DNA of 57,352 nt from Bdellovibrionales bacterium RIFOXYD12_FULL_39_22 (GCA_001770205.1 MEQL01000031.1:62001-119352), one strand, 5' to 3'. Shown: positions 1 through 17,754, counted from the stretch's first letter. Notes: generated by a model from the sequence alone, not told the origin. Translations and numbers: made by a program.

Positions 1-2
1 CT

Positions 3-2960
3 GTGTCTCCGGTGGATAATCCCGTTGTTATTTTAAGTACAGAGAGTCAGGGTTTTATTATTTCTGCGTCTGGAAATCCGCCCCTTGATTATGAATGGTC
101 CGTTAATCCTGGTGGTGTGGTTACTAGTTGTAACGGATTATCCACATGTTCACTAACTGGCGGAGATTTGACTCCAGGTAGTTATGTTTTTACTGCAACG
201 GTTATAGACAATATTGCGCTTACAGATTCGCATGATTTTAATGTGGTTATTAATGATCGGCCAAGTGTTTTGTTTAAATCGCCATCTAATGCAACAACTT
301 TAAAAATGAATTGTGGTGTTAGTAAAAATTTTCAAGTGACAATTGAAGACGATAACTTTGTTGATCCAGGCCAAACGTTCTCAATAGATTGGTTTGTTAA
401 TGGATTGCCAAATAACTCACTTGCGAAAGTTAACGATTTAGGGGTTTATCCAATGACCTCAAGTGCAACTTTTTCTCCCAATTGCTCAAGTGCACTAATT
501 GGAGATCTTGAAATCTCTGTAATTATTTCTGATGGATATGAGGCGCAGACGATTACTTGGGATGTTTCAGTAAATTATTTCAGTGAAACATGTAATAATT
601 TAACCGAACGAACGGCATGTACTTTGGTTGGAATGTTAGGTTTAGGCAGTGGCCTTGATGTAGTTGCTGATTATGATCAGATTCGTATGTATCCGGCGAA
701 TATATTACCACATCCAGGAGGTGGTTTTTTTATCTCTGATACTTTCAATCATGTGGTTTGGTTTTACAATAATTCTGGTGTGACAAAAACAGTTATTGGG
801 ACAATTGTGCCAGATGGCCATCTTTCCGTAGTGGCCGGGGTGGGAGGGGCCGGCTCCCTTGCCTCTTCTCAAAATGCGCTAGATTTTTATTTGAATACTC
901 CCAGTGGCCTGGCCTATCATAGTGTTACCGGAGATCTTTACGTTGCAGATTATTCCAATAATCGAATTGTAAAATTTGATTCAGCTGGACTGGGTACTAT
1001 TTTTGCTGGTGGAGGGGCCAGCAATGTTGATGGAGCTGCAAGAACTACGCATAAATGTAATAATCCGGAAAATTTAATCTTAGATGAAACTGCTGGGAGA
1101 TTGTTTGTTTCCTGTTATGGTAATAATGTGAACAATGTTGATGGAAGTTTAAAGTATTTTTTTACGGATACAAATACAGGATATACAGCATTACTTTATT
1201 CATTGGCCAATACTGCTGGAACAACAGGATTGGCCGGGACTGCGCGGACCAGACAGCTCTATTCGTTGGCCAAACATCCTTCACAAGATATTATCTTTGC
1301 AGCTGATTTACAGGCGTGTCAGATTATGGCCGTAAGCTATGGTGATACCGGAAGCTATTATGCGGGAGCAGTAAATTTATCAGCGGATAACATGGTACTT
1401 TTAACGCAAAATAGCGCTTGTGGAAACACGCTTAATCGATCCTATAATGACGTGGCGGGTGCCATTAGAACATATGGACTTGCTTTAAAAGTTAATGTGG
1501 GTGTGGTTGAAGGAGTTTTCTTTTCCGGGTTTGGTAGTCATAATGTTGGGCTTTTGAATTTAACTGGAGGCAATTTGTTTGTAGGTGGAAATACTATTGC
1601 CGCAGGAAAATATGATCGAGTATTTGGAACAAGTGTTGCTGATTATGGACGTGGCCGGCCAGCATATACAAGCGCGATGGTAAATTATCCGCTGGGGATA
1701 GATACTAAAAATGGAGTTTTATATATTGCAGATAGAAATAACTTTAAAGTTACGTTAATGGATTATACCGTGGCCAGTGGTACTCCGGCCGATTTAGTAG
1801 GTAATATTGCTCCTTATGGATACGATAGCGAATTGGATAAGTTGGCCAATAAAAGGAGGCTCTATTATCCAGAAGCAATGACTTATGATTTAGATAATCA
1901 TGCTCTATATTTTATGGACTACTCAAATTACAGAATAAGAAAGGTTGATTTAACTACCGGACGAGTGACAACAACTATTGGACGAGGTTCAAATGCAGCT
2001 TCGAATACAAATCCGGAGGAGGCATTATCAGAAGTTAATTTTCAAATGATGAGAGATTTAACGGTGATTGATTCTGGAAATGCCATTCTCTATACAGATA
2101 GTAACACCGGAATTACTGCAAATCTAAATTGTCTGATTCGTGCGTTTAATCAATCGGGATCAGAGCAAACTTATTTTAACCAAACATTTTTATCTGAACG
2201 TGTGTTTACCGTTGCCGGTAATTACGTTGAAGGATGTGGAACGTGGGCAGGACAGGGATATGATGGTGCAAATGCTATTATGATTAGGTTGCGTGATCCG
2301 TACGGATTGGCGGTAATGGATGATATGTCTAATTTTTATGTTAGTAGTAGAAATGATAATTGTATCCATAGAGTAACAACTAATGGAATTATTGATGATG
2401 TTATTGGCCTTTGTGGGGCCGCCGGCGCGGATGTAGACGGCGCATTTGTAGATGCACGAATAAATTCTGCTGGCGATTTGGACATTGATTCAAATGAAAC
2501 TTATCGCGATAATGGAAATTTCTTTTTAGTTGACCGTTCGCTGGCCACAACTTCATATATAAAATATGCTAATTTTAGTGCGGATGTTGTTTCGATAGCA
2601 GGGATTGATATCGCAGCTGGAGAAATTAGAAAAATTTTTTCTACAGACGGATATGTTGGTGGTGTTACTAGTTTTGATGATCAAATTTGTTATACTCAAG
2701 GGGCCGGTTCAACAATTTCTGCTAATGCAAACAATGTTATGTGTTTTAATAGAATTACGGGGATTCAGACATTAAGAGTTGGTAAATCTTCTGCTAGTAC
2801 GGTAAAAGGTAAAACACAATTATATAGTGAACAAGAGGGGGTTTTAGCAGAATCAACAACGTTAAATCGTCCGTGGGGAATAACTTTTGATAGAGACGGT
2901 AACCTTTATATTTCAGAATATGGCGCTAATGTAATTCGATTAATAAAAAAATGGTGGTGA
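3..2960 (+). CDS. Large extracellular Ig-like + NHL-repeat (beta-propeller) protein, 5'-truncated by window edge
   Basis: Repeated NHL motifs (LNTPSGLAY..GDLYVADYSNNRI, VNYPLGID..LYIADRNNFKV, LNRPWGITFDRDGNLYISEYGANVIR) after beta-rich Ig-like segments; the ORF is open at the window start. Confidence 0.85.
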   Translation: MSPVDNPVVILSTESQGFIISASGNPPLDYEWSVNPGGVVTSCNGLSTCSLTGGDLTPGSYVFTATVIDNIALTDSHDFNVVINDRPSVLFKSPSNATTLKMNCGVSKNFQVTIEDDNFVDPGQTFSIDWFVNGLPNNSLAKVNDLGVYPMTSSATFSPNCSSALIGDLEISVIISDGYEAQTITWDVSVNYFSETCNNLTERTACTLVGMLGLGSGLDVVADYDQIRMYPANILPHPGGGFFISDTFNHVVWFYNNSGVTKTVIGTIVPDGHLSVVAGVGGAGSLASSQNALDFYLNTPSGLAYHSVTGDLYVADYSNNRIVKFDSAGLGTIFAGGGASNVDGAARTTHKCNNPENLILDETAGRLFVSCYGNNVNNVDGSLKYFFTDTNTGYTALLYSLANTAGTTGLAGTARTRQLYSLAKHPSQDIIFAADLQACQIMAVSYGDTGSYYAGAVNLSADNMVLLTQNSACGNTLNRSYNDVAGAIRTYGLALKVNVGVVEGVFFSGFGSHNVGLLNLTGGNLFVGGNTIAAGKYDRVFGTSVADYGRGRPAYTSAMVNYPLGIDTKNGVLYIADRNNFKVTLMDYTVASGTPADLVGNIAPYGYDSELDKLANKRRLYYPEAMTYDLDNHALYFMDYSNYRIRKVDLTTGRVTTTIGRGSNAASNTNPEEALSEVNFQMMRDLTVIDSGNAILYTDSNTGITANLNCLIRAFNQSGSEQTYFNQTFLSERVFTVAGNYVEGCGTWAGQGYDGANAIMIRLRDPYGLAVMDDMSNFYVSSRNDNCIHRVTTNGIIDDVIGLCGAAGADVDGAFVDARINSAGDLDIDSNETYRDNGNFFLVDRSLATTSYIKYANFSADVVSIAGIDIAAGEIRKIFSTDGYVGGVTSFDDQICYTQGAGSTISANANNVMCFNRITGIQTLRVGKSSASTVKGKTQLYSEQEGVLAESTTLNRPWGITFDRDGNLYISEYGANVIRLIKKWW

Positions 2961-2969
2961 GTTTATTTT

Positions 2970-3326
2970 ATGACAAGAGTAATAAAAAAAATATTAGTAA
3001 TTGATGATGAGGAAGATGTTTTGATAATTGTTGAGGATATGTTGTTGCAGAATAATTTTCAGGTAGTAACGGCCACTTCTTTGGCGATGGCCAAAGAAGT
3101 TCTAATAAAAGACCAAGATATTTCCTTGGTTGTTTCCGATATTAATTTGGGGTCTTTCTCTGGAATTGATTTTTATAAAGAATTAAAGAAAGAGGGGATT
3201 TGTGCAATTCCATTTATATTTATGTCGGGATACGTTGATTCACAGGTCCTTAAAATAGACGACTGCCGATTGATAACGAAGCCATTTTCGGTAGAAGACA
3301 TTCTTGCGGCAATCAGGAGCTTGTAG
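2970..3326 (+). CDS. Single-domain response regulator (receiver)
   Basis: ILVIDDE, VVSDINL (phospho-Asp), FMSG, KPF. Confidence 0.9.
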   Translation: MTRVIKKILVIDDEEDVLIIVEDMLLQNNFQVVTATSLAMAKEVLIKDQDISLVVSDINLGSFSGIDFYKELKKEGICAIPFIFMSGYVDSQVLKIDDCRLITKPFSVEDILAAIRSL

Positions 3327-3339
3327 GAGATAAGTTATT

Positions 3340-5106
3340 TTAAGCGGCCTCTTTATCGTTGTCGTTTTTTTCGTTTGTTTCAGTGGCCTTAGCAACTTTT
3401 TCAATACCGGCAATCAATTTATCATCGTTATCCGAAGCTATGTTTTTGCCAAGTGCTTGCTTTTTATTTTCGCTGTCCAGAATGTTCTTGTAGGTGACTG
3501 CCATACTGTTTCGGATTGCCACTTGGGCCGTGATGTCAATTTTTCCATTATCAATATTTCGTAAATGACTGGAAAGGAGATAAGCTTTTTTACTATCTAA
3601 TCGTTCTATTATTTTGTTTCTAAGTTCATGTGAAGTATTAAATAAAACAATGGCCCAGTCTTTAATGGAATAAATACCAATTATTTGTTGTAATAGATGC
3701 GGTTCTCCATCAAAAACTTTATAAAAAGGGGGACGAATTTGTGTAAGAAATGAATCATCAGGCAAAGTTAAGTATATGTCTCTTTCAACCTCAACTTTAG
3801 CACATTGAATATACTCAATAAGGTCCTTATCTTTATGATATTGGGCCAGAGAGCTAATATCAAAACGTGGCTTTTCTCGCATTGCAAGTCTGAAAATTTC
3901 TTTGGCCTTTTCATCTAAAAGGGTAAAATTTTTTTTGTCTTGAGTTAAGAGTATTCCCCATGCCCCCGGATATATCTTCCTGGCCAGTGGAATACCGAAA
4001 GATTTTGGCATATCAAAAAGAATAGCAAAAACTTCATCTTGCTTGAACTGTTTTAAAAAATCAGGAGCCTTGTCACTTAATCTCCAAATTTGAGTCAATA
4101 ATGATCCCCAAATTCCTGGCGCGACGTTTTCTCGTATGCGAAGTAGGCGATCAAGAAGTTGAATACATCCATCGTCTAAACTTCCAGGTTCGCTAAAAAC
4201 AGTATACCATACATTGTTCACACCCAGCGAAAAGATTTTACGCTGGTATTCTATGGGAAATTCATAGAACAAGGCCCCTAGTGATTGAGGAGTTGTTTCT
4301 GCCATTTTGGCGAAAAGAATCATATCACTCAAAGTTGGAAAATTTTTATCTCTAATTAAATCTTGAATTTTTATATTGGCAATTTCTTTGAGCTTTATCG
4401 GATCTCGTAGATGAATATCTCCTGCCGCCATGCCCGGATTATTTGAAGTGGATCTATTGGTTGCATTTACGGGTGACGGCATGTCCATCGCAGAAGAGCG
4501 TGCCCCTCCCTCATTGCCGGGAGTAGTGTAATTAGAATTGATTGTGCGAAGAGATTTTTTGAAAAAAATAGTGAAGAATATGGCCGAAAATAAAATGGTT
4601 GCTGCAAGAATGAGTTCGCCGGGTATTTTATCAAAGATGCTTTCATTGCTGCTTGTCTGCCATGTTTTTTGCACTACCTCCATTTCATCTCGAACAGGAA
4701 CTAATTTGATAAAGGATAAAAGCTCCCTTTCGGTGTCTTCTACTTCTTTTATGTTGATACTGCTTGGAATTACAATTTTTACTCTTGCTTTTTTTATTCG
4801 AGGAATTAGATTATAAATGCTAATGTTTTGATCGTCCCATTCATCTATGATTTCTTCGCCTTGAAATTCATAATAGGGAAGGGATTTTTCTCTGGAAGTA
4901 TTGGAGGCAATTCTGCGAAGCGGATCAATTTCGATGGCGACGATGAAGGGTGTGTTGGGAAAGCGGCGTTGTAAAAAACTAGAAGCATCATTAATCAATT
5001 TTTCTTCTACTTCGGCAACACGAGGAAGTTTTTCGCCAGAAACTATTTGTGCGTTGGCCAAAATGGTAAAAAGGAAAACGAATAATCCTAAAAAATAATA
5101 CTTCAT
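3340..5106 (-). CDS. Signal peptide + FliF RBM3-like periplasmic domain + TM + cytoplasmic FliG-like region (putative FliF-FliG fusion)
   Basis: N-terminal signal peptide; IKKARVKIVI..RDEMEVV resembles FliF_C; TM LILAATILFSAIFFTIFF; WAIVLFNTSHELRNKIIERLDSKKAYLL resembles FliG_C; directly downstream of motB. Confidence 0.6.
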   Translation of the reverse strand: MKYYFLGLFVFLFTILANAQIVSGEKLPRVAEVEEKLINDASSFLQRRFPNTPFIVAIEIDPLRRIASNTSREKSLPYYEFQGEEIIDEWDDQNISIYNLIPRIKKARVKIVIPSSINIKEVEDTERELLSFIKLVPVRDEMEVVQKTWQTSSNESIFDKIPGELILAATILFSAIFFTIFFKKSLRTINSNYTTPGNEGGARSSAMDMPSPVNATNRSTSNNPGMAAGDIHLRDPIKLKEIANIKIQDLIRDKNFPTLSDMILFAKMAETTPQSLGALFYEFPIEYQRKIFSLGVNNVWYTVFSEPGSLDDGCIQLLDRLLRIRENVAPGIWGSLLTQIWRLSDKAPDFLKQFKQDEVFAILFDMPKSFGIPLARKIYPGAWGILLTQDKKNFTLLDEKAKEIFRLAMREKPRFDISSLAQYHKDKDLIEYIQCAKVEVERDIYLTLPDDSFLTQIRPPFYKVFDGEPHLLQQIIGIYSIKDWAIVLFNTSHELRNKIIERLDSKKAYLLSSHLRNIDNGKIDITAQVAIRNSMAVTYKNILDSENKKQALGKNIASDNDDKLIAGIEKVAKATETNEKNDNDKEAA

Positions 5107-5108
5107 AT

Positions 5109-5822
5109 TTAATCCTTCTGTGTGTCTGGGCCAATTACTAATAATATTTTACGATCAAAAGCATCCCACTTTTCCTTAATTGCAGGATCTGTTGACAATT
5201 CTCGTGAGGCAATAGTTCGTTGTATTGCTTTACTGACGCCGTGGCCGGCCAGTTGCATGCGATCAAGCGGAATTCCTGCCAATTGAAATACCCGCATGGT
5301 GGCAATTGAGCGGAGTGCAGATAGTTCCAGGTTATCTTTGAAGCGCCTATTTTCCTTGTACATAACTTTTTTGTTATCAGTGAATGCACGAATGGAAAGA
5401 ATATATTGTCCTGCGAAAGGCAAATAGATGTTAGCAAATTTAGCAAGTAATACGGAAACATCCTTTTTTGGATCAATTCCGCCTATTTCAAAAAAAGAGA
5501 TGTTGGGAAATTCAACAATGATTTGTTCGTCGACATTATGAATTTTTGTATTCAATTCTTTGAGTTCTGCTTTTATTTCGGGATTTATTTTATTACCGAG
5601 TGAAAGTTGCCCCTTAGGATATAGTTCGACACTGTTTAGATCTCGTAAGTTCATCATTAAGGTTTGATTGAGCTGTGCTGTTTTGTTGGCCTCAAAATCG
5701 ACGGTAAAAAACAAGACAAAAAAACTTAGAAGTAGCGTAATCATGTCCCCATAGCTAACGGCCCAGGAACCATCAGTATCAACATATTCATTATCTTGTA
5801 TCTGCTTTTTATTTTTTATCAT
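5109..5822 (-). CDS. motB: MotB-family stator subunit (OmpA-like peptidoglycan-binding domain)
   Basis: WAVSYGDMITLLLSFFVLFF with the conserved Asp; FTDN..NLELSALRS OmpA-like motif. Confidence 0.85.
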   Translation of the reverse strand: MIKNKKQIQDNEYVDTDGSWAVSYGDMITLLLSFFVLFFTVDFEANKTAQLNQTLMMNLRDLNSVELYPKGQLSLGNKINPEIKAELKELNTKIHNVDEQIIVEFPNISFFEIGGIDPKKDVSVLLAKFANIYLPFAGQYILSIRAFTDNKKVMYKENRRFKDNLELSALRSIATMRVFQLAGIPLDRMQLAGHGVSKAIQRTIASRELSTDPAIKEKWDAFDRKILLVIGPDTQKD

Positions 5823-6616
5823 GCGGCCAGCTCTTCGTTGATGCCTGTTTCTTGAGTTGTTATTATGTTTATTTGATCCTCCTCTTCTAAAAATGAGTTA
5901 AGTTGTTCTTGGGCCTCAAGAAGATTTGTATTATCGGCCAGAAGCATAATTGACTCTATTCCGATACTGGACAGCTCCAAATCATGCTTCATATCTTGAT
6001 GGACTGCTTCTCCTACGGGGTTTACAAAAAGATTAGCAATGATTAACCCATAAAAAGTAGCTACAAGAGCGATGGCCATTCGGATGCCTGTTTCTTTTGG
6101 ACTAACGCCGTCGGAGACTCCTCGCATTAGATGGATGAGCCCCAAGACAGTTCCAGTTAGTCCAAAGGCCGGGGGATATTTAGAAAGTCCACGCAACCAA
6201 TTCGCAACTAGTTCAACTCTTTTCCTGTGAGTTAAAATTCTATCTAGTAACATCTCCTGAACTTTATCTCTATTAAACCCCAAATCCAGAAGCTCAACGC
6301 CATCTTTTAGTATTTTGTTTTCTATCTTTGTTTTATCCAGTTTGGTGATTGTAGAATTATTATGGCCTACGATTTGAATGCAAAGATTTACAAATTCTTT
6401 TTTAGTTTTTTTTACGGCAAAGATAGAACTTAGAAGTGTTTTTAATGCTAAAATTTTCTTCGTTTTAGGAAAGGTTATAATGGCGACGGAAATTGTTCCC
6501 GCCCAGACGACACTAAGTGCAACAAAATCATAATAGTTGCTATAGGTTTGACCCAAGTGTTTTATTGCAAAGAAATACCCGACATTTGCTATGATCAGTC
6601 CGATTAAAAGTCCCAT
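5819..6616 (-). CDS. motA: MotA/TolQ/ExbB-family stator subunit, divergent
   Basis: PAFGLTGTVLGLI and MAIALVATFYGLIIANLFVNP; 4-nt overlap with motB. Confidence 0.85.
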   Translation of the reverse strand: MGLLIGLIIANVGYFFAIKHLGQTYSNYYDFVALSVVWAGTISVAIITFPKTKKILALKTLLSSIFAVKKTKKEFVNLCIQIVGHNNSTITKLDKTKIENKILKDGVELLDLGFNRDKVQEMLLDRILTHRKRVELVANWLRGLSKYPPAFGLTGTVLGLIHLMRGVSDGVSPKETGIRMAIALVATFYGLIIANLFVNPVGEAVHQDMKHDLELSSIGIESIMLLADNTNLLEAQEQLNSFLEEEDQINIITTQETGINEELAA

Positions 6617-6927: not shown

Positions 6928-8280
6928 ATGGGATTACTTAAATCCAAAAAAATCTTATTTATTGATAATTTTTGCTTTGATCGTGACATTATACTTACGG
7001 TCATTGAATCACAATTTGAAAATCAAATAGTAGAAGTTGATAGCGGGGAAGAGGCAATAAAAATTTTAACAAATGACTCTGAGTTTGCTCTCATCATTTG
7101 TGATTTCGGATTTAGTGATGCTGGCGAAAATGCTTTTTACTCATTTTTAAAGAAACAGGGAAATAAAGTTTCTGTGATTTTGATCAATAATAGTGATATC
7201 GGAAACTATTCAGAATTTTCTAATTTCTATAAAGACAACGCATTAAATGACTCCTTTAGTCGTCCAATTATGGAAAGAGATATTATCGACAAAGTTACTC
7301 TTGCCCTTGGATTAAATGTTTCTGCAGAGGCTGGTGCTAAAAAATATTTTAAAGTCAATATTGCCAGATTCATCGAGGTTAATAGCAATAAAATGGATAT
7401 CTTTATCAAATTATCGGAGGATAAATTCATAAAGGTAGTTGATAAAAACAATGAATATGACAAAGGAGCAATTGCAAAATATTTAAATAGAAATATTACC
7501 TTCTTCTATTTAACCAACGAGGGACTTGTTAGTTATTTGGCTCAGGTTGCCGCATATTCAGCGGCCGGAGCTATTGGGCAATTGGATATTGATATGGATT
7601 TGCAACTTACTTCGGTTGAGCAGATTCACGAATGTGTTCAGGCCCTTGGAATTAATGAGAGTACAGTCAAATTGGCCACAAGCGTAGTTGCCCTTGCGCT
7701 TGTTACTATCGAGAGTAATAAAAAGTTGGAGTATGTTTATAAACTTTTAAAATCAGGAACGAATTATATTTCTTTGCATGCACAGCTAACTTCTTATATC
7801 GCTTGTTCACTTGCAAGTAAGATGGAGTGGGGAACAACTCCTGTTTTGAATAGCCTAACCTTTGCTGCGCTTTTTCAGAATATTTCACTAAGCAACTCAA
7901 AGCATGCAATGATTCAAAATATAGACAGTGACACTTTTAAAAATATTTCGGAAGATGAACAGAGACTGATTAGAAATCATGTGTTTAAATCGGTAGAAAT
8001 GCTACAAGATTTGCCCAAATTTAATGAAGATGCTCATAAGGCAATAATTAATCATCATGAACGGCCCAACGGAAAAGGTTTTCCGCGCGGTTTGATGGCC
8101 GCACAGATTCCACCGCTGTGCTGTGTTTTTATTTTGGCATCACAATTTGCGCATGAACTAATTGTAAGAGGATCTTCTCGAGATAAAATCCAGTCGATTA
8201 TTAATGATTTTGAAAAAATATATAGTCATGGAAACTTTGATCGACCATTTTATGAATTCAAAAAAATGTTCTATGAATGA
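6928..8280 (+). CDS. REC + HD-GYP-like protein with degenerate HD site
   Basis: N-terminal receiver fold; HHERPNGKGFP present, but ALFQNIS replaces LLHDIGK. Confidence 0.8.
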   Translation: MGLLKSKKILFIDNFCFDRDIILTVIESQFENQIVEVDSGEEAIKILTNDSEFALIICDFGFSDAGENAFYSFLKKQGNKVSVILINNSDIGNYSEFSNFYKDNALNDSFSRPIMERDIIDKVTLALGLNVSAEAGAKKYFKVNIARFIEVNSNKMDIFIKLSEDKFIKVVDKNNEYDKGAIAKYLNRNITFFYLTNEGLVSYLAQVAAYSAAGAIGQLDIDMDLQLTSVEQIHECVQALGINESTVKLATSVVALALVTIESNKKLEYVYKLLKSGTNYISLHAQLTSYIACSLASKMEWGTTPVLNSLTFAALFQNISLSNSKHAMIQNIDSDTFKNISEDEQRLIRNHVFKSVEMLQDLPKFNEDAHKAIINHHERPNGKGFPRGLMAAQIPPLCCVFILASQFAHELIVRGSSRDKIQSIINDFEKIYSHGNFDRPFYEFKKMFYE

Positions 8281-8325: not shown

Positions 8326-10332
8326 TTACTCAATGATTGCTATCGAGGCCGGTGTTCGCTCACTAGTTTCTCTACGATAGTTATCAACAATCCCCAGGCC
8401 ATCAAAGGTTCCTTCGCTGAAGTAATTTACAAAACTGCCATGATTGTTGGCCTGGACTCCATTAACAGAACCATTAAAAAAAACATTATTAGCTCCAAAA
8501 AGTTTTTTTAGCAATTCTTTCGAATCGCTTGTCTTATTGAAGGAGATAAGAAAATTCTTTAGAGGAAAGAGTGCTATCTCATGATATTTTTTAATGTAAC
8601 TAACATATTTTCGATAATCATCGCGTACATTATCAAAGCACTTGTGGGCACGGGCCTTGCTTATAAATTGATACCAGCGATAATCGTGATCGAGATGACA
8701 GGCAACAGAAATAATTTCTTCGGCATTATCGCTGGAGAGTTTATTAAAATGAATCATTCCATCGCGATTGATTCTGGCAACAGTGGCCAGGCGAAGTGGC
8801 CCGACTAATTTTTCTTGGTCGATAGAGCTTATAACTTCCGGGGAAATAGTTGTAAATTTCTTGGCAAAAGCAACGGCGTAATCTTTATAGCGTTCATAAA
8901 TTATCCCGGTGGTTTTATAAGTTTGAAATTCATTACTAATTGTTAAAGACAGTTTGTCCTCAGAATCGACAACGGGGCCACCATCGCGTATTTGACGAAT
9001 ATCTGCATACTCCATTTGAATATTTCTAATGCGCGAAATTTTATGCCGGAGAAAAAGTTCACCACCTAAGAAGTTTTTTGAGAAACCATTAAGAATGGTT
9101 TCCAAAGTTCCATCTACATATTTTACGCTTTCATAATATAATTTAAAAAAAGTTTTTGCGATGCCGTTTTTGCTAATTACAATTTGCTCACTGCTTTTTT
9201 GCCCCTGTGCCCCCCAGAAAAAGAGACGAAATTTGGATTGTTGATTTTCGCTTTCTCGCTCTTCTTGTGAGACAAGATAGTCTGCAATGGCCGAAGAACT
9301 CACACTATTTAGCGAGAGAAGATCGGTTATGGTATTAGAAAGTTTTTCATTTGATTCTAAATTTTCCAGATCTTCGCTGGTAAAGCTCAGAAATGTCTGA
9401 GTTCCATGTAAGTAGCTATAGGAGTACTCGTAAGAAAGAATAGTTAGTCGTAGTAGATTGTAAAAGTCTACTTCAAAAGAAATGTCAGCGTTGACGATTT
9501 TCTCTGCAACTTTTTCCACTGACAGGCGTAGTATTTCACCTTCGGCCGGATTGTCTTCGGGGCCTAGTGCTTGAATGGATACTGAAGACAATTTTTTCTT
9601 ATGAACTAATATTCCGGCCACCACATCAATTCCAGATCCTAAAGGGGCCATGGCGCCACTTCCTGCACGGGTGCAGATAAAATCCTCTTTGACGATGTAG
9701 TCATACTCATCAAGATAAAGAATCTCTTCTGTGCTAAATTTAGTAAAGGACATAAAGAGTTTATTAAAATCCTGCGTTAACCCATCTTCATAACTACTAG
9801 CAACGTGAATATAGCGATATTCGCGCTTAAAAGTTATTCCAGCAAAGGCCAAAAGTGTTGAGCGCGAAATGTCGATTACTCCCTCCTCTTTCAAATTGCT
9901 AAGATAGGAAAAAGCATCAACATTTAAAATAAAGCGATCGGTAACGAGCCATCTGTTATCGTCAAATAGATCAGGCGCAAGAGAGCGATCTATTCCGATA
10001 TTGATGCTACCCATGGGCCTTTGCCAGCTAAAACCCGAGCCGTTATATTTTCCCAGATTGAATTCATAATTTTTTTTCAAAACAGAGGCGGCCTGTTGAC
10101 TGCCAATTTCTTCGTAGCGCGGATAGAGATACTCAAAAATATTTTCAAACACACTTTTGTGCTGCTCTAGTGAAGCAGGCGGCATTTGCTCTTTGCTTTT
10201 TGTATTAGTGCTAGCGTTTTGTAATTTAAAATTGGTAAAAGAGATCTCTTCTGCGGAAGAGCAGTTGGAGAGAAAAAGTATTATAACAACTAAAATGGCC
10301 AGGATACTGCCGTCAGATAGTCGAGAACTCAT
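8326..10332 (-). CDS. Hypothetical secreted/lipoprotein, 668 aa
   Basis: Long ORF; hydrophobic N-terminus ending LFLSNC; C-terminal RTPAS; strong upstream promoter. Confidence 0.75.
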   Translation of the reverse strand: MSSRLSDGSILAILVVIILFLSNCSSAEEISFTNFKLQNASTNTKSKEQMPPASLEQHKSVFENIFEYLYPRYEEIGSQQAASVLKKNYEFNLGKYNGSGFSWQRPMGSINIGIDRSLAPDLFDDNRWLVTDRFILNVDAFSYLSNLKEEGVIDISRSTLLAFAGITFKREYRYIHVASSYEDGLTQDFNKLFMSFTKFSTEEILYLDEYDYIVKEDFICTRAGSGAMAPLGSGIDVVAGILVHKKKLSSVSIQALGPEDNPAEGEILRLSVEKVAEKIVNADISFEVDFYNLLRLTILSYEYSYSYLHGTQTFLSFTSEDLENLESNEKLSNTITDLLSLNSVSSSAIADYLVSQEERESENQQSKFRLFFWGAQGQKSSEQIVISKNGIAKTFFKLYYESVKYVDGTLETILNGFSKNFLGGELFLRHKISRIRNIQMEYADIRQIRDGGPVVDSEDKLSLTISNEFQTYKTTGIIYERYKDYAVAFAKKFTTISPEVISSIDQEKLVGPLRLATVARINRDGMIHFNKLSSDNAEEIISVACHLDHDYRWYQFISKARAHKCFDNVRDDYRKYVSYIKKYHEIALFPLKNFLISFNKTSDSKELLKKLFGANNVFFNGSVNGVQANNHGSFVNYFSEGTFDGLGIVDNYRRETSERTPASIAIIE

Positions 10333-10619: not shown

Positions 10620-12092
10620 GTGAGTAGTGACGAACGATATAAATTTTTAATGCAGATTTTTGAGGCCATCGATCACCCCTTCTATGTTATAAATGCGAAA
10701 AATTATGAAGTAGAAATGGCAAATAGTGCCGCAGGAGTATTATCTCCGGGAATTAAATGTTACCAGTTAACTCACCGGCAAGATACTCCCTGCTCAACTC
10801 GAAACGATCCCTGTGTAATAGAAAAAATTATTGCTAGCAAGAAACCGATGATTGCGCATCACACTCATTACGGTGCTGATGGAAAAGAGCGCAAAGTAGA
10901 GTTACATGGTTTTCCCATTTTAGATTCCCACCACGAGGTTTCGTTGGTGGTCGAATACGCCATAGACGTAACGGAAGCAGTTTTATCCAAACAAGATCTT
11001 ATCGCCAAGTCTCAGATGTTGCGAGAGACTTTTGAAAATGCCCCAGATGCCATTGTTTGGATAGATGTATTTTCCGCCGAAATAATCAATTGCAATCACG
11101 CGGCCTGTCGCTTATTGGAGCAGGGCCTGGATGAAATTATTAATCGAGATTTTCATTTTATGTTCCCAGAAAATCGTCAAGATATATACCGGCCAATTTT
11201 TAACGAGATGTTGGAAAAAAACATGAAAGAGGTAGAGGTCGAGATAGTGACTTCTGGGGGGGAGATAAAATATTGCAGCATGAGTACGGCCGTAATAATG
11301 TTGCAAGGCAAACTTATTTTTCAAGGAATTATTCGTGATAACACAGAGAAAAAGAAGGCCGAAAAAGAAAAAGAAGTTTTTAATCAAAAAATTTATGTTG
11401 CATCTAAAATGGCATCCCTTGGTGAGCTGGCCTCGGGAGTTGGACATGAAATAAATAATCCACTTACCGTCTTGAAGGGATACAATAAAGTCATTGCCGG
11501 GAAGCTAGAGAAAAGGGGAGTAGAGGCTGATGAAGTTTTAAAAATTGTTAAAGTCCAGGGAGAGATGATTGAACGGATCGCTGAAATTGTAAATACGCTG
11601 AGAGGATATTCTCACGCTAACGAGGGAGCTCCCACAAGAGTTAGCATAGCGATGGCCGTCGATGGTGCCGTGAAGTTATTAAAAAATATCTACCAAAAAG
11701 AGAATGTGCAAATTGAACTAGGTGAGATAAGTAAAAAAATAGAAGTAATGGGGCATCAGGGGAAAATTCAGCAAATTATTGTTAATCTGCTATCTAATGC
11801 CAAAGATGCCATATTGGAAAAGGGGCCGTCGGGAAAAACAAAAATAGAGGTTGTACTCAAAGGGGAGCGGGTTTGGGTAGTGGTAACAGATAGTGGAAAG
11901 GGTGTTTCTCAAGAAGATCGAAAAAAAATCTTTGACTCCTTTTATACTACTAAGCCCAAAGGAAAGGGAACTGGATTGGGTTTATCTATCTCGGCAGATT
12001 TGGCCCATCAGATGAGTGGGAAGTTGTTTTTAAATGAGAAGCATGAAGGGAGTGGCGCACAATTTATTTTGGAATTTCCACTAATGAGATAG
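10620..12092 (+). CDS. Cytoplasmic PAS-PAS histidine kinase (NtrB-like)
   Basis: Two PAS domains; GHEINNPL H-box, NLLSNAKDA, DSGKG, FYTTK, GTGLGLS. Confidence 0.92.
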   Translation: MSSDERYKFLMQIFEAIDHPFYVINAKNYEVEMANSAAGVLSPGIKCYQLTHRQDTPCSTRNDPCVIEKIIASKKPMIAHHTHYGADGKERKVELHGFPILDSHHEVSLVVEYAIDVTEAVLSKQDLIAKSQMLRETFENAPDAIVWIDVFSAEIINCNHAACRLLEQGLDEIINRDFHFMFPENRQDIYRPIFNEMLEKNMKEVEVEIVTSGGEIKYCSMSTAVIMLQGKLIFQGIIRDNTEKKKAEKEKEVFNQKIYVASKMASLGELASGVGHEINNPLTVLKGYNKVIAGKLEKRGVEADEVLKIVKVQGEMIERIAEIVNTLRGYSHANEGAPTRVSIAMAVDGAVKLLKNIYQKENVQIELGEISKKIEVMGHQGKIQQIIVNLLSNAKDAILEKGPSGKTKIEVVLKGERVWVVVTDSGKGVSQEDRKKIFDSFYTTKPKGKGTGLGLSISADLAHQMSGKLFLNEKHEGSGAQFILEFPLMR

Positions 12093-12104: not shown

Positions 12105-13505
12105 TTGGCATTAAAAATTTTAGTCTCTGATCCGGATAAAGATTGGCGTGAAAAAGCAAAAGACTTTTTGGATGCAGAAAATTTCCAATTAGAGGCAGCA
12201 TTATCTGGTAAAGAGGTTCAACTAAAGGTTTATCGCGAAAAATTTTATGCGCTGATTTTAGATATGAGCACTATTAATCATTCGGCCTTAGAAGTTTTGA
12301 AATACGTACGTCTAACCTCTCCCTCGGTTAAAATAATTATAACGTTAGAGAACAATAAAGTGCTCGAAGATATGGAGATGGAGCGAGAAGATGTTTTAAG
12401 ACTGGGTGTTAGTAGCGTAATCGTAAAGCCGTATAGTAAAGAGCAGTTACTGGAAGCGGTTAATGGTTCTTTAGAGCATAAATTGTGGAAAAATAGAATG
12501 GCCAATGCCAATCAGAACCATCCCCCGGAAGAAATTGTGGCCCGAGATGAAGAATTTACACGGATTAAAATTGCAGAGGCCTCGATTGGTAACCCTGCTA
12601 TTTTTAATTTGTATATTCGTTTGAGTGAAAATCACTATGTTAAAATTATTCATGCCGGAGATTTTTTTGATCAAGAAAAAATAAAAAAGTATAAAACGGA
12701 GCGACAGATCGATCATCTTTTTTTTAAAACAAAAGATCGTGCGTTATATGTTCACTTTGTTAATGATTTGTTGGAAAAAGTTTTAAAAAAAGGCGGTAAA
12801 GTTCCACAAGAGACCAAGGTCAATCTAGTAAAAAATCTGACAGAGAAGTTTGTGGAGGAAGTATATACTCAAGGGTTAAAGCCACAATTAATTGATGAAG
12901 GTAATCGGGTTTGTAAAAACATTACAGATCTTATTCGCACAGAACGTGGATTGAATAAAATTTTGCTGGAGTTCAAAAATTATGATTACTCGGCATATAG
13001 CCATTCTTTTTTGGTTGCCTTTTTTTCTGCTGCACTATGTACCGATCTGGAGTGGGCATCTTCTGGGACCTCTGAAAAGGTAGCAATGGGAAGCATTTTG
13101 CATGATATTGGAAAATTAAAACTTCCTTTTTACTGCTCCTCGCTAGATCCAGAACAAATGACTCCAGAACAGCTCAAAGATTATAAAACGCACCCGAGGT
13201 TGGGATTGGAGATGATTTCTAACTATACCGTGATTAATCAAGCAGTAACCCAAATAGTTTTTCAGCATCACGAACTACAAGATGGCTCGGGCTTCCCCGA
13301 TGGACTAACCGGCATGAAGATTTATCCCTTGGCGCAAGTGGTGGGATTAGTTGATGCATTTGCTAAAAGAATTGTGAAAAAAAAGCTCTCTCCTCGCGAG
13401 GGCCTTCGGGATTTTTTACTGGATAGAGAGGCCATCTCAAAATATAATCAGAAGTATGTTAAGGCGCTGGTAAACTCTTTTATGGATAGCAAAGTATTTT
13501 TATGA
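12105..13505 (+). CDS. REC + HD-GYP phosphodiesterase-family protein
   Basis: HS..ILHDIGK, HP..G, QHHELQDGSGFP; N-terminal receiver; TTG start after RBS AGGAG. Confidence 0.88.
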   Translation: MALKILVSDPDKDWREKAKDFLDAENFQLEAALSGKEVQLKVYREKFYALILDMSTINHSALEVLKYVRLTSPSVKIIITLENNKVLEDMEMEREDVLRLGVSSVIVKPYSKEQLLEAVNGSLEHKLWKNRMANANQNHPPEEIVARDEEFTRIKIAEASIGNPAIFNLYIRLSENHYVKIIHAGDFFDQEKIKKYKTERQIDHLFFKTKDRALYVHFVNDLLEKVLKKGGKVPQETKVNLVKNLTEKFVEEVYTQGLKPQLIDEGNRVCKNITDLIRTERGLNKILLEFKNYDYSAYSHSFLVAFFSAALCTDLEWASSGTSEKVAMGSILHDIGKLKLPFYCSSLDPEQMTPEQLKDYKTHPRLGLEMISNYTVINQAVTQIVFQHHELQDGSGFPDGLTGMKIYPLAQVVGLVDAFAKRIVKKKLSPREGLRDFLLDREAISKYNQKYVKALVNSFMDSKVFL

Positions 13506-16091: not shown

Positions 16092-16128
16092 TTGGCCATA
16101 GAGAAAAATGATCGCGGAGGGCTTATAT

Positions 16129-16935
16129 ATGGATATCGCAACAATTATTGGTTTTACTGTTTGTATGGTGGCCTTGATTGGTTCAATCGTAACTAGTGCC
16201 GATATTATAATTTTTTATGATCTTCCTTCTGCGCTGCTAGTAGGACTGGGAGTTATAGGTGGAACGTTTATCAAATGGCCAATGGAAGTTTTAAAAGATG
16301 CAGGCAAATATTGCATGAAGATGATTTTTTTTACTCCGGCAGATCCGGTGGAGACCATTAATGAAATTGGAAAACTAGCAGAGACAGCAAGGCGCGAGTC
16401 AGTGTTTGCGCTGGAGAAGGTTCCCATAGAAGATGCTTTTTTAAAAAAGGCCATGGCCTTGGCGGCCGATAATCGGCCACCTGAAGTAATTTCCTCAATC
16501 TTACAATTAGAAATTGATGCTATGGCCGGCCGGCATAAGACGGGGGCAGATTTTATGGATGGAGTGGCCGACTCTGGCCCGGCCTTTGGAATGTTGGGAA
16601 CTTTGATTGGATTGGTTATCATGCTGCAAAATTTGTCTGATCCATCCTCCATTGGCCCGGCAATGGCAGTTGCGATTTTGACGACGCTTTATGGTTCAAT
16701 CATATCTAATGTTTTTGCAATCCCAATGAAAAATAAATTAAGTGTGCGCTCAAGTGATGAGGTTTTGAAAATGAATATTATTATCGCGGGGACGTTGGGA
16801 ATTGTGGCCGGAGAGAATCCGCGTTTGATCAAAGAAAAGTTAAATTCCTTTTTACCTCCAAGTCAGCGCTCTTTGGATGGAATGGAAGGAGATGGAGCTG
16901 CAGCAGGTGGTGGCGCAGAAAAAGGTAAAGAATAG
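16129..16935 (+). CDS. motA: Flagellar stator MotA/PomA
   Basis: ARRESVFALE torque loop; GPAFGMLGTLIGLVIMLQNLSDP; MAVAILTTLYG; RBS GGAGG before ATG 16129. Confidence 0.93.
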   Translation: MDIATIIGFTVCMVALIGSIVTSADIIIFYDLPSALLVGLGVIGGTFIKWPMEVLKDAGKYCMKMIFFTPADPVETINEIGKLAETARRESVFALEKVPIEDAFLKKAMALAADNRPPEVISSILQLEIDAMAGRHKTGADFMDGVADSGPAFGMLGTLIGLVIMLQNLSDPSSIGPAMAVAILTTLYGSIISNVFAIPMKNKLSVRSSDEVLKMNIIIAGTLGIVAGENPRLIKEKLNSFLPPSQRSLDGMEGDGAAAGGGAEKGKE

Positions 16936-16944
16936 GAGTAATTT

Positions 16945-17754
16945 ATGGGAAACAAATGTCCTCCTTGTCCGGCCTGTCCACCTAAGTGGATTGTTACTTT
17001 TTCCGATATGACAACTTTGCTTTTGACTTTTTTTATCTTGCTTTTATCATTTGCAAAAACAGAAACTTCTAAATCAGAAGCGGTTATGGGGTCAGTGCAA
17101 GATGCTTTCGGGGGAAATGTGTTGCGGCAAGGAGAGGTAATGGAGCGTGGAAAGTCGATGGATGATGCTCCTACCATGATTGAAGGGAAGGAACCGGTAA
17201 AACCATTTCCCATTGAGTTTTTAACCAGTGAAGGTTTGTTGGAAAAAAGGGAGATTAATCGGGCCTCAGAAGAAGATATGAAATTAATGAAGCGAGATCT
17301 ATCCGATATGGCACTTTCTGAGCATGCGGATCTTTACGAAATGCCGGAGTCAATAAAAGTAAGAATTAGAGAGGCCATCTATTTCAAGAAAGGAACCTTA
17401 GAGGTAGAAGATATATCAATAGAGGTTTTCGAAAAATTATTAAAGCTACTTGCACAAAAGCAGTGGATAGTATTTATTGAAGGCCATGCGAGTGTTGGAG
17501 AATCTTCGCCGGATGGTAAACTGGATGCGATTGCCTTGTCTTCACTGCGAGCGGCGGAAGTTTCGCGCAAATTAATTCAAAAAGGCGTTCCACCGAATAA
17601 AATTTCGACGGTGTTCTATGGAGATTCTCGGCCATTAAAAGGAGAAGGAATAAGTGCTGCGGCCGTGGACGCTAAAAATCGACGAGTTGAATTTATTTTA
17701 GGTAAAGTTGATTTGCGCTTTGAGGGGCATAAAGTAAATGCCACCGGAAACTAA
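16945..17754 (+). CDS. motB: Flagellar stator MotB/PomB
   Basis: WIVTFSDMTTLLLTFFILLLSF; IEGHA..LSSLRA..KNRRVEF. Confidence 0.92.
   Translation: MGNKCPPCPACPPKWIVTFSDMTTLLLTFFILLLSFAKTETSKSEAVMGSVQDAFGGNVLRQGEVMERGKSMDDAPTMIEGKEPVKPFPIEFLTSEGLLEKREINRASEEDMKLMKRDLSDMALSEHADLYEMPESIKVRIREAIYFKKGTLEVEDISIEVFEKLLKLLAQKQWIVFIEGHASVGESSPDGKLDAIALSSLRAAEVSRKLIQKGVPPNKISTVFYGDSRPLKGEGISAAAVDAKNRRVEFILGKVDLRFEGHKVNATGN

Follow-up and report, generated by a model that had tools for sequence, protein, structure and literature searches.

We analysed a stretch of 57,352 nucleotides (nt) from Bdellovibrionales bacterium RIFOXYD12_FULL_39_22 (GCA_001770205.1 MEQL01000031.1:62001-119352), referred to below as the window, which occupies G000:C31:62001-119352 in the coordinates of the source genome. 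Near its start, a motA-like gene, a motB-like gene and an open reading frame (ORF) of 588 amino acids (aa), here named X, form one minus-strand unit. The best explanation of the evidence presented below is that X represents a naturally occurring homologue of the flagellar rotor in a single chain, with ring-building motif 3 (RBM3), one transmembrane (TM) helix and a region resembling the N, M and C domains of FliG, and that its gene is transcribed together with those of its own MotA/MotB pair, which is of flagellar lineage. An earlier interpretation of this DNA (the sequence-only reading) had described the three-gene layout, with motA and motB overlapping and X starting 2 nt after motB, and the ORFs confirm both the arrangement and its coordinates:

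5819..6616, minus strand: motA-like gene, stator A subunit, flagellar-type but divergent (265 aa; PF01618 match)
5109..5822, minus strand: motB-like gene, stator B subunit (237 aa; 4-nt overlap with motA)
3340..5106, minus strand: X, single-chain FliF(RBM3)-TM-FliG-like protein (588 aa; begins 2 nt past the motB stop)

X joins a FliF-like ring-building domain to a FliG-like region

An AlphaFold2 model of X was built on 20 relatives, with a mean predicted local distance difference test score (pLDDT) of 76.5 and a predicted template-modelling score (pTM) of 0.52. Together with structural and profile comparisons, it divides the protein as follows:

5044..5106, minus strand: N-terminal signal peptide or first membrane helix, residues 1-21 (model helix 2-19)
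4657..5034, minus strand: periplasmic RBM3-like domain, residues 25-150 (VIA and hhalign)
4540..4620, minus strand: TM helix, residues 163-189 (AlphaFold2 model; KK..R follows)
3418..4401, minus strand: cytoplasmic FliG-like, all-helical region, residues 236-563 (model, Foldseek, VIA)
3466-3729, minus strand: FliG_C-like domain, residues 460-547
3343..3417, minus strand: acidic low-confidence tail with an Ala-Ala end (pLDDT <50 at residues 559-588)

Helix 2-19 is followed by an 'ANA-Q' cleavage-like site, as read from the sequence. Residues 28-147 are modelled as alpha-beta-[insert 63-96]-beta-alpha-beta, the conserved insertion (nt 4819-4920) lying where FliF carries its beta-collar, and the periplasmic part of the model is a single domain of ~125 residues without an extended arm. 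The one TM helix expected by the sequence-only reading corresponds to model helix 163-189, which pairs with FliF TM2 in an hhalign comparison with E. coli FliF, and residues 190-233 are predicted to form a disordered linker.

In VIA comparisons, X 25-150 matched Salmonella FliF 233-437 and Vibrio FliF 261-452 with Z scores of 11.0-11.7 and a root-mean-square deviation (rmsd) of 2.5-2.8 A over ~95 residues, at ~12% identity to FliF RBM3; the individual Z scores were 11.7 for 8z5v_A and 11.4 for 7cg7_A (FliF 233-437). Lower scores were obtained for OsmC/Ohr, the next unrelated fold (Z 8.4), and for EscJ (Z 8.2). For the cytoplasmic part, the first 13 rows of a Foldseek search of the PDB with the X model comprised a FliF model and 12 FliG chains, with a run of FliF S-ring chains coming next, and the top match was 9n49_G, a full-length FliG (E 8.3e-4, 316 columns, 319-residue chain). 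VIA aligned X 330-547 with FliG 100-320 (M and C domains) at Z 10.2-11.1, and X 460-547 with 8ucs_H, the FliG_C chain of a MotAB-FliG complex, at Z 10.9 (rmsd 1.9 A, 86/88 residues). The M and C parts of the FliG N-M-C fold are thus matched in X, while the N domain is explicit only for a 657-aa paralogue described below. RBM1 and RBM2 were not found in X, since a whole-genome search with PF01514 matched only the canonical gene on contig 39.

Family-level comparisons gave the same assignments. At E<=0.001 the X family holds 209 representatives, nearly all of 550-600 aa. A 124-member profile searched against the PDB reached FliG_C at E 2.2e-4, with all six best matches being FliG, compared with E 0.06 for the same search with a 20-sequence profile. 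When family members were scanned singly, 43 of 75 matched PF01706 (FliG_C) with E<=1, the lowest value being 3.3e-7, whereas MgtE_N, a FliG-related family, was matched by 16 of 75; PF08345 (YscJ_FliF_C) was matched by none of the members among the families listed in this one-by-one scan. In hhalign, a canonical FliG profile (22 sequences, 21 from the phylum plus E. coli) aligned over 196 columns with the X profile (E 9e-5), so that X 345-545 corresponds to E. coli FliG 116-318, and a profile of 22 FliF C-terminal parts aligned at E 8.6e-6, pairing RBM3 beta2-alpha2-beta3 (the 'IKK.SVAV.VDG...RGD' segment) with X 101-155. These family-versus-family alignments replaced comparisons of the X profile with single E. 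coli FliG and FliF sequences, in which the regions were right and the statistics weak (E 0.03 and 0.048). Matches of X to RE_endonuc (0.0015) and other families were at chance level and were rejected; the deeper profiles all led to FliG. The segments of X that had been quoted as resembling FliF RBM3 and FliG_C fall within the paired stretches 101-155 and 345-545, and judged by these alignments their resemblance to FliF RBM3b and FliG_C is beyond chance. The FliF-RBM3-like periplasmic domain and the FliG-like cytoplasmic part proposed earlier therefore both hold.

The conserved positions of FliG are retained selectively. The EHPQR motif of FliG_M binds FliM, and E125, H126, Q128, R160, G194 and G195 are invariant in 22/22 canonical FliG sequences. 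X carries F354, K355, D357 and Q389 at the EHPQR positions and lacks the Gly-Gly stretch, and the corresponding family columns are variable. The equivalent of R281 (X position 506) is K or R in 123/124 members, and that of D288 is Glu in 76/124; R281 and D288/D289 of FliG are named as MotA contacts in the accessible part of PMC12505986. The final residue is Ala in 113/124 members of the X family and in 24/25 of the paralogue family (mostly Ala-Ala), versus 2/22 canonical FliG sequences, the Ala-ending C-terminus of X being at window 3340-3348, with a further case at L098:3466-3474. The Ala-Ala end of X may be a degradation or docking signal. The window's MotA-like protein also ends in Leu-Ala-Ala.

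The dedicated stator pair is of the flagellar lineage

The motA-like product matches MotA_ExbB (PF01618, 3.4e-18 in Pfam) and aligns end-to-end with the PomA, MotP and MotA models of NCBIfam at 75-87 bits, versus 14 bits for TolQ; the PomA match covers residues 4-248 of 254 positions at 87 bits. All NCBIfam stator scores are below the curated cut-offs, so the protein is not an equivalog of any named stator. All 48 of 48 X-linked MotA proteins retain prolines at the positions of P173 and P222 in E. coli MotA. The R90 column holds R or K in 6/7 canonical-type paralogues and is mixed in the 48 X-linked proteins (Q 7, R 7, S 5, K 4, others), and the E98 region cannot be aligned in the X-linked set. 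The motB-like product consists of a plug, a TM helix with the channel Asp26 (nt 5745-5747) and an OmpA-like peptidoglycan-binding end, with Pfam matches to MotB_plug (1.2e-9) and, under the cut-off, OmpA (8e-4); in the B. bacteriovorus MotB orthologue the OmpA domain scores 33 bits, above the cut-off. The channel Asp, in 'SYGDM', is kept in 33/33 alignment rows that hold the column, 17 further rows having been lost to trimming, and the peptidoglycan-binding motif 'DNLELSALR' is conserved in X-linked MotB.

The lineage of the A subunit was examined in a quick maximum-likelihood tree (IQ-TREE) of 64 MotA-family proteins. Of these, 48 are X-linked, 15 are paralogues encoded by this genome and by that of B. 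bacteriovorus Bd5, and one is E. coli MotA. Four paralogues, one mis-called ORF and three TolQ-like proteins, were left out. TolQ/ExbB-like proteins split from the MotA side with 100% support, and the X-linked proteins lie on the flagellar side. Forty-six of the 48 form one group (support 89), and the branch to eight canonical-type MotA proteins is 100% supported. By the alignments and the tree, the X-linked stator is of flagellar lineage but of its own kind, with its channel residues intact, and it looks competent.

Flagellar-type MotA proteins number five in this genome and four in Bd5. In Bd5 the cluster MotA lies at 1.086 Mb, and the others map far from it, at 128.7 kb, 2.91 Mb and 3.17 Mb; from position and gene-number order, these three are probably the published MotA1-3. 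Three Bdellovibrio motAB pairs were reportedly studied by Morehouse in 2011. Of the genes for the published MotA1-3, bd3021 and bd3254 appear in the accessible part of PMC11323537. In this genome, two extra flagellar-type motA-motB pairs are found outside flagellar clusters (G000:C39:129163-134090 and G000:C7:145195-147882). The contig-39 pair adjoins a 1032-aa ORF without a family and a pilin-like gene, and a HEAT-repeat protein follows the contig-7 pair. The contig-7 MotA groups with the MotA linked to the contig-23 paralogue described below (support 99).

The conserved unit is a set of six genes

The sequence-only reading took the locus for a compact three-gene machine. A synteny survey revises this: the conserved unit is six genes, namely a PEGA/TPR lipoprotein, motA, motB, X, a small outer-membrane (OM) barrel and a giant NHL/Ig lipoprotein, and it is kept in ~50 Bdellovibrionota loci. 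In the source genome the remaining members, with one further gene, lie on the plus strand:

C31:60097-60702, plus strand: PEGA/TPR lipoprotein, just upstream of the window
C31:60715-61269, plus strand: small OM barrel, just upstream of the window
1..2960, plus strand: giant NHL/Ig-domain lipoprotein, 3' part (1235 aa; start 748 nt before the window; full gene L082:9253-12960, ending at window 2960)
2970..3326, plus strand: response regulator with a single domain, at the end of the convergent lipoprotein operon (Response_reg 1.4e-15)

These plus-strand genes converge on X across a gap of 13 nt. The response regulator has homologues in just 6/59 loci and so falls outside the conserved set.

By record title, the 58 related loci comprise 51 from Bdellovibrionota, 6 that are uninformative and 1 from a Streptomyces metagenome-assembled genome (MAG). 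BLAST detected a motB-like gene beside X in 55/58 and a motA-like gene in 52/58, and the misses are contig ends save for one locus. In that locus (L048, 7902-17111) there is ample upstream sequence, yet no motAB beside X. Downstream of X this locus nevertheless has the barrel and a giant ORF of 2275 aa, and a different contig of the genome encodes a MotA of the X type (39% identity, E 5e-51). Neighbour clustering over 59 loci, whose motA and motB counts are lower bounds because gene calling missed real ones, gave the order lipoprotein, motA, motB, X, small OM protein, with the giant protein immediately upstream or downstream. Among loci with enough flanking sequence, the lipoprotein is found in 44/49, the small OM protein in 42/45 and the giant protein in 21/25. 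None of the further gene families beside the cluster recurs in more than 6/59 loci, and no flagellar genes were found among the cluster neighbours scanned with Pfam. The set stayed together through an inversion, a point in favour of a functional tie between its genes.

The lipoprotein family has TPR repeats in 20/20 members and a PEGA domain in 6/20. The small OM protein is barrel-like on the strength of a weak OMP_b-brl match, and its profile found no solved relative (best E 0.04, an unrelated lectin, and 0.26, Opa). The giant protein carries NHL (1.7e-15) and Ig/PKD-like repeats and an 'IISC' lipobox. A cultured carrier is available, as the full six-gene cluster is present in a B. bacteriovorus strain (L019). 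The locus filed as a Streptomyces griseus MAG (L056) has the giant protein, lipoprotein, motA, motB, X and barrel all present; its actinomycete label is probably a binning or labelling error, because all close relatives are Bdellovibrionota.

This conservation bears on the idea that the locus is a decaying remnant of a duplicated flagellar cluster, functionless today. Strong divergence would fit such an origin, as would the lack of a Pfam match for the window's X and the loss of EHPQR and Gly-Gly. However, frames are open and full-length in the 209 representative clusters, W90, D140, W383, E441 and Y445 are invariant across 124 X sequences (with P77 in 123/124), the stator channel residues are intact, and the six-gene synteny survives rearrangements. 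Decay is already disfavoured and, in our estimation, very improbable.

X is an accessory module in genomes that also encode the canonical rotor

Separate canonical fliF and fliG genes, whose presence elsewhere in the genome the sequence-only reading had set as a check, adjoin each other on contig 39 (a 568-aa frame with PF01514 at 207 bits and a 354-aa frame with PF01706 at 139 bits). X itself occurs in 55/401 sampled genomes of the phylum, in 49/337 of high quality and in 16/100 of its own family, a patchy distribution that implies that the module is accessory. All 53 carriers tested also encode FliF. Among the sampled genomes of the phylum, X was not found without a flagellum, and within this phylum its independence from the flagellum is therefore presumptive.

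The co-occurrence with FliF gives weight to a different explanation, in which X and its MotAB serve the single polar flagellum, either, for example, as alternative rotor subunits that enter the S-ring and present a FliG-like surface to a specialised stator, or as an extra ring or scaffold, in which the TPR lipoprotein and barrel would play the part that periplasmic and OM discs have in the motors of Vibrio or Campylobacter. TPR and OM proteins build motor discs in other species, and the X-linked MotA is of flagellar lineage. In addition, the accessible part of PMC11323537 describes Bdellovibrio-like bacteria as having one flagellum and 1-4 isolated motAB pairs. Several observations argue against this proposal. 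X is patchy in the phylum and in its own family, the cluster has neither flagellar genes among its Pfam-scanned neighbours nor any other widely recurring family, and the FliM site is lost in X. Moreover, at ~12% identity to FliF RBM3, co-assembly of X with FliF looks unlikely. Two paralogous systems each have their own giant non-flagellar protein (NHL in one, fn3 in the other), and look-alikes in the ESM Atlas, which are leads, come from phyla that by general knowledge are mostly non-flagellated. We regard service to the flagellum as unlikely.

The second of these systems lies on another contig of the same genome:

G000:C23:27686-38992 (L092 4687-15993): paralogous system with a TPR lipoprotein, a 657-aa protein, motAB and further ORFs

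It comprises a 218-aa TPR lipoprotein, a 657-aa RBM3/TM/FliG-like protein, motB (312 aa) and motA (266 aa) in convergent orientation, a 566-aa ORF, two ORFs without assigned function and a 1257-aa fn3 protein. The profile of the 657-aa protein aligns with that of X at E 2.8e-13 over 478 columns in hhalign and reaches PDB FliG at E 2.4e-7; its model matches FliF RBM3 at Z 10.7, and residues 334-637 match FliG 3-329 at Z 10.5 with 284 aligned. This paralogue occurs in 53/401 genomes of the phylum, and a homologue search with its alignment returned one protein only. A second match to it in this genome (G000:C55:73054-74373, E 1.4e-40), in a 743-aa open frame, covers query residues 205-646 only and lies ~1 kb from another TPR-lipoprotein paralogue. 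The 566-aa ORF on contig 23 was considered as an X-like protein and rejected (hhalign probability 0.3%); its C-terminal end is barrel-like by eye.

Beyond the phylum, look-alike clusters of 480-720 aa in the ESM Atlas combine FliG_C, FliG_M and YscJ_FliF_C in one chain. These leads, which come without alignments, fall in Bdellovibrionota, Cloacimonadota, Pseudomonadota, Elusimicrobiota, Myxococcota, Balneolota, Bacteroidota, Fidelibacterota and Thermodesulfobacteriota. The module belongs to a broader class of systems that combine such a fusion with a stator, and this genome itself encodes at least one distant paralogue. A stand-alone 143-aa ORF (G000:C4:54537-54968; L095 6538-6969, minus strand) scores 55 bits for FliG_C, which exceeds the cut-off set by Pfam.

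Predicted self-association and a proposed mechanism

Four copies of X 24-152 were predicted to bind one another with a score of 0.68 (runs of 0.64, 0.68 and 0.68), versus 0.00 for the best of 3 controls. In calibration, which was done with two copies and with alignments of its own, the score mark was reached by 20/30 proteins solved as one-chain pairs and by 1/23 solved as single chains. Contact agreement across the four-copy runs was at least 82% and partner pLDDT at least 78. In the predicted assembly, one copy contacts two neighbours through separate faces, residues 28-56 on one side and residues 40-51, 94-99 and 118-134 on the other. Such head-to-tail packing of the RBM3-like domain would be the pattern expected of a ring arc, although the four-copy pass may reflect mere likeness to solved FliF rings, which are assemblies of about 33-34 subunits.

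A working model can be drawn from these parts. The RBM3-like domain would oligomerise X into an inner-membrane (IM) ring bearing a FliG_C-like crown. Peptidoglycan-anchored units of the MotA5B2 type would pass ions by way of the invariant MotB Asp and push the FliG_C-like helix (position 506, Lys/Arg), so that the ring is turned or loaded. This ring would be without a secretion gate, switch complex or axle, because RBM1/RBM2, the EHPQR FliM site and the export, rod and hook genes are missing. Its output would pass to the PEGA/TPR OM lipoprotein, the small OM barrel and the giant NHL/Ig lipoprotein. It would probably serve to move or actuate this last protein, at the surface or in the periplasm, during adhesion, movement over surfaces or the handling of prey.

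The same parts could be put to a non-rotary use, in which X is a membrane anchor or lever pulled by a 5:2 motor in the manner of Tol-Pal or Ton, or a dock that retains and regulates the stator units, and the complex energises an OM assembly. Tol-Pal is composed of an IM motor, an anchored partner, a beta-propeller, an OM protein and a TPR protein, and the six-gene set parallels it in composition; rotation, moreover, is presumptive. Against this, X lacks a long arm spanning the periplasm, and the domain that it turns towards the motor lies in the cytoplasm and resembles FliG_C, which is also the case in the flagellar motor. Its MotA partner groups with flagellar MotA, large cytoplasmic domain included, and not with TolQ/ExbB, and the periplasmic domain of X is the ring-forming module of FliF, with predicted head-to-tail chaining. 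A lever or dock is accordingly a doubtful account of the locus.

The best reading is an accessory, non-flagellar rotor-stator machine of the envelope, to which we assign a probability of about 0.55, with the rotation and output being components that would follow from the proposed mechanism. The sequence-only reading is thus partly supported: its structural part holds, while the non-flagellar rotary role that it offered as a possibility (gliding, prey attachment or entry, secretion) is presumptive and has to accommodate FliF in 53/53 carriers tested. That co-occurrence is one of several points that weigh against the present reading as well. What the data show is the homology of the parts, their fusion, the conservation of the gene set and intact channel residues. 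That a ring forms, that stator and rotor touch, that the ring rotates, what its output is and that it works independently of the flagellum are inferred, and the output partners were assigned from gene neighbourhood alone. Two families of the phylum (f3 and f7) that gave no FliG_M match in a 41-genome sample (0/5 and 0/4) also gave no X (0/9 and 0/9 genomes). The window's own X has no FliG match in Pfam or NCBIfam (PF01706 absent at E<=1), and the helical FliG match, at Z 10-11, is below the VIA caution line of ~13 for helical repeats, so that it leans on the sequence profiles for support. At the level of residues, the D288 equivalent is Ser in the window's X, those of K264 (Phe or Asn columns) and D289 (variable) are unconserved in the family, and the MotA R90 equivalent is unconserved in the X-linked set, where the alignment is poor. 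The collar-position insertion is modelled at pLDDT <50. Finally, a scan for sigma-70 promoters and terminators gave 14 and 4 sites versus 14.5 and 3.5 expected from shuffled sequence, and thus does not inform the limits of the operon.

A bolder formulation, which we put forward tentatively and rate somewhat short of an even chance, is that of a self-contained non-flagellar rotary engine in which a MotAB-spun RBM3/FliG ring moves a giant surface protein via the barrel and lipoproteins. There would be several engines per cell, each with its own cargo (at least two here, and possibly a third, from the partial match), and the design would extend to several phyla, including non-flagellated ones, either as a re-used torque core or as a living relative of a pre-flagellar module.

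Comparison with known rotors and ion-driven motors

X resembles the flagellar motor's core in its RBM3 fold, which bears an insertion where FliF has the beta-collar and leads into a TM helix, and in its FliG M and C folds, including the MotA-facing helix with the basic R281 equivalent. Its MotA/MotB partners likewise have the channel Asp, plug, prolines and peptidoglycan-binding end. It differs from that core in that the FliF and FliG parts are fused in one chain, RBM1/RBM2, EHPQR and the Gly-Gly linker are absent, and the insertion is ~34 residues long, compared with ~110 in Salmonella FliF. The cluster, too, is without FliM/FliN, export, rod, hook and filament genes, and its partners are instead a TPR lipoprotein, a barrel and an NHL lipoprotein.

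Having both parts in one chain is a feature shared with the engineered FliF-FliG fusions of Salmonella and Vibrio alginolyticus. The Vibrio fusion has been purified as an MS-ring and its S-ring solved, according to the accessible parts of PMC11481574 and bioRxiv 10.1101/2023.02.06.527414, so that ring assembly is evidently within the capacity of a fused rotor subunit. Unlike those fusions, which contain full-length FliF and operate in a normal flagellum, X is natural, is without the first two thirds of FliF and lies outside flagellar gene clusters. The TolQR-TolA/Pal, ExbBD-TonB, AglRQS-Glt, GldLM and ZorAB systems are similar to the X cluster in coupling an IM ion motor to OM or periplasmic partners, such as lipoproteins, barrels and TPR proteins, for work in the envelope; among them, AglRQS-Glt is a gliding complex and GldLM belongs to type 9 secretion and gliding. 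However, the A subunit of the X cluster is of flagellar lineage, and what it presumably acts on is the FliG-like domain that a ring-building protein holds in the cytoplasm, not a periplasmic arm of the TolA, TonB or GldM kind; in the part of PMC12505986 available to us, motors of the TolQR/ExbBD/Agl/Gld/Zor type are grouped as generic ion transporters, distinct from flagellar ones. The alpha-beta-beta-alpha-beta ring-building fold is also found in SctJ/EscJ, PrgH/PrgK and SpoIIIAG, and the 657-aa paralogue matched SpoIIIAG at Z 6.8 and the Shigella inner-membrane ring at Z 6.7 in VIA. These type III and sporulation proteins score below FliF RBM3 (Z 11-11.7) and carry neither a FliG-like domain nor a stator.

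FliG and flagellar-type MotAB are known to function nowhere but in the flagellar motor. No published description of a fused-rotor-plus-stator arrangement was found in a search that left subscription journals and supplements outside its range. The arrangement goes unmentioned in the accessible portions of a MotAB phylogeny (PMC12505986) and of a 2026 preprint on flagellar gene history (PMC13277936), and the papers found that treat a FliF-FliG fusion in title and abstract concern the engineered Vibrio protein. What is new here is the presence of flagellar torque parts in an undescribed assembly, which looks like an undescribed motor. If this interpretation is correct, it would add a new envelope machine to predatory bacteria, whose surface motility and prey handling are so far explained only in part, and would supply structural and single-molecule studies with a rotor-stator pair that is minimal and genetically compact. 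The origin or re-use of the flagellar rotor-stator module would also become directly testable, because intermediate forms exist in nature.

Other features of the window

Neighbouring rod, export and filament genes had been reported as absent, and none was found by Pfam among the ORFs scanned over 1-31.6 kb (those at 1-12 kb and 15 ORFs of at least 150 aa at 12-31.6 kb). The canonical motAB pair that had been placed at 16.1 kb was recovered there. The stretch is present in 10 DNA runs from groundwater and soil metagenomes, with no RNA run among the holders listed. The following genes lie beyond the X operon:

16108-17754: canonical motA and motB (PomA model 235 bits)
6928-8280, 10620-12092 and 12105-13505: two receiver-HD proteins and a 490-aa ORF
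8326-10332, minus strand: 668-aa ORF

The 668-aa ORF has a hydrophobic N-terminal stretch and is without a Pfam or NCBIfam family. The two receiver-HD(HD_5) proteins, which are of the cyclic di-GMP phosphodiesterase type, and the 490-aa ORF sit between the X operon and the canonical motAB. Receiver-HD homologues are found in just 3/59 loci, making these proteins local neighbours outside the conserved set, and the 490-aa ORF has motifs that, judged by eye, are histidine-kinase-like.

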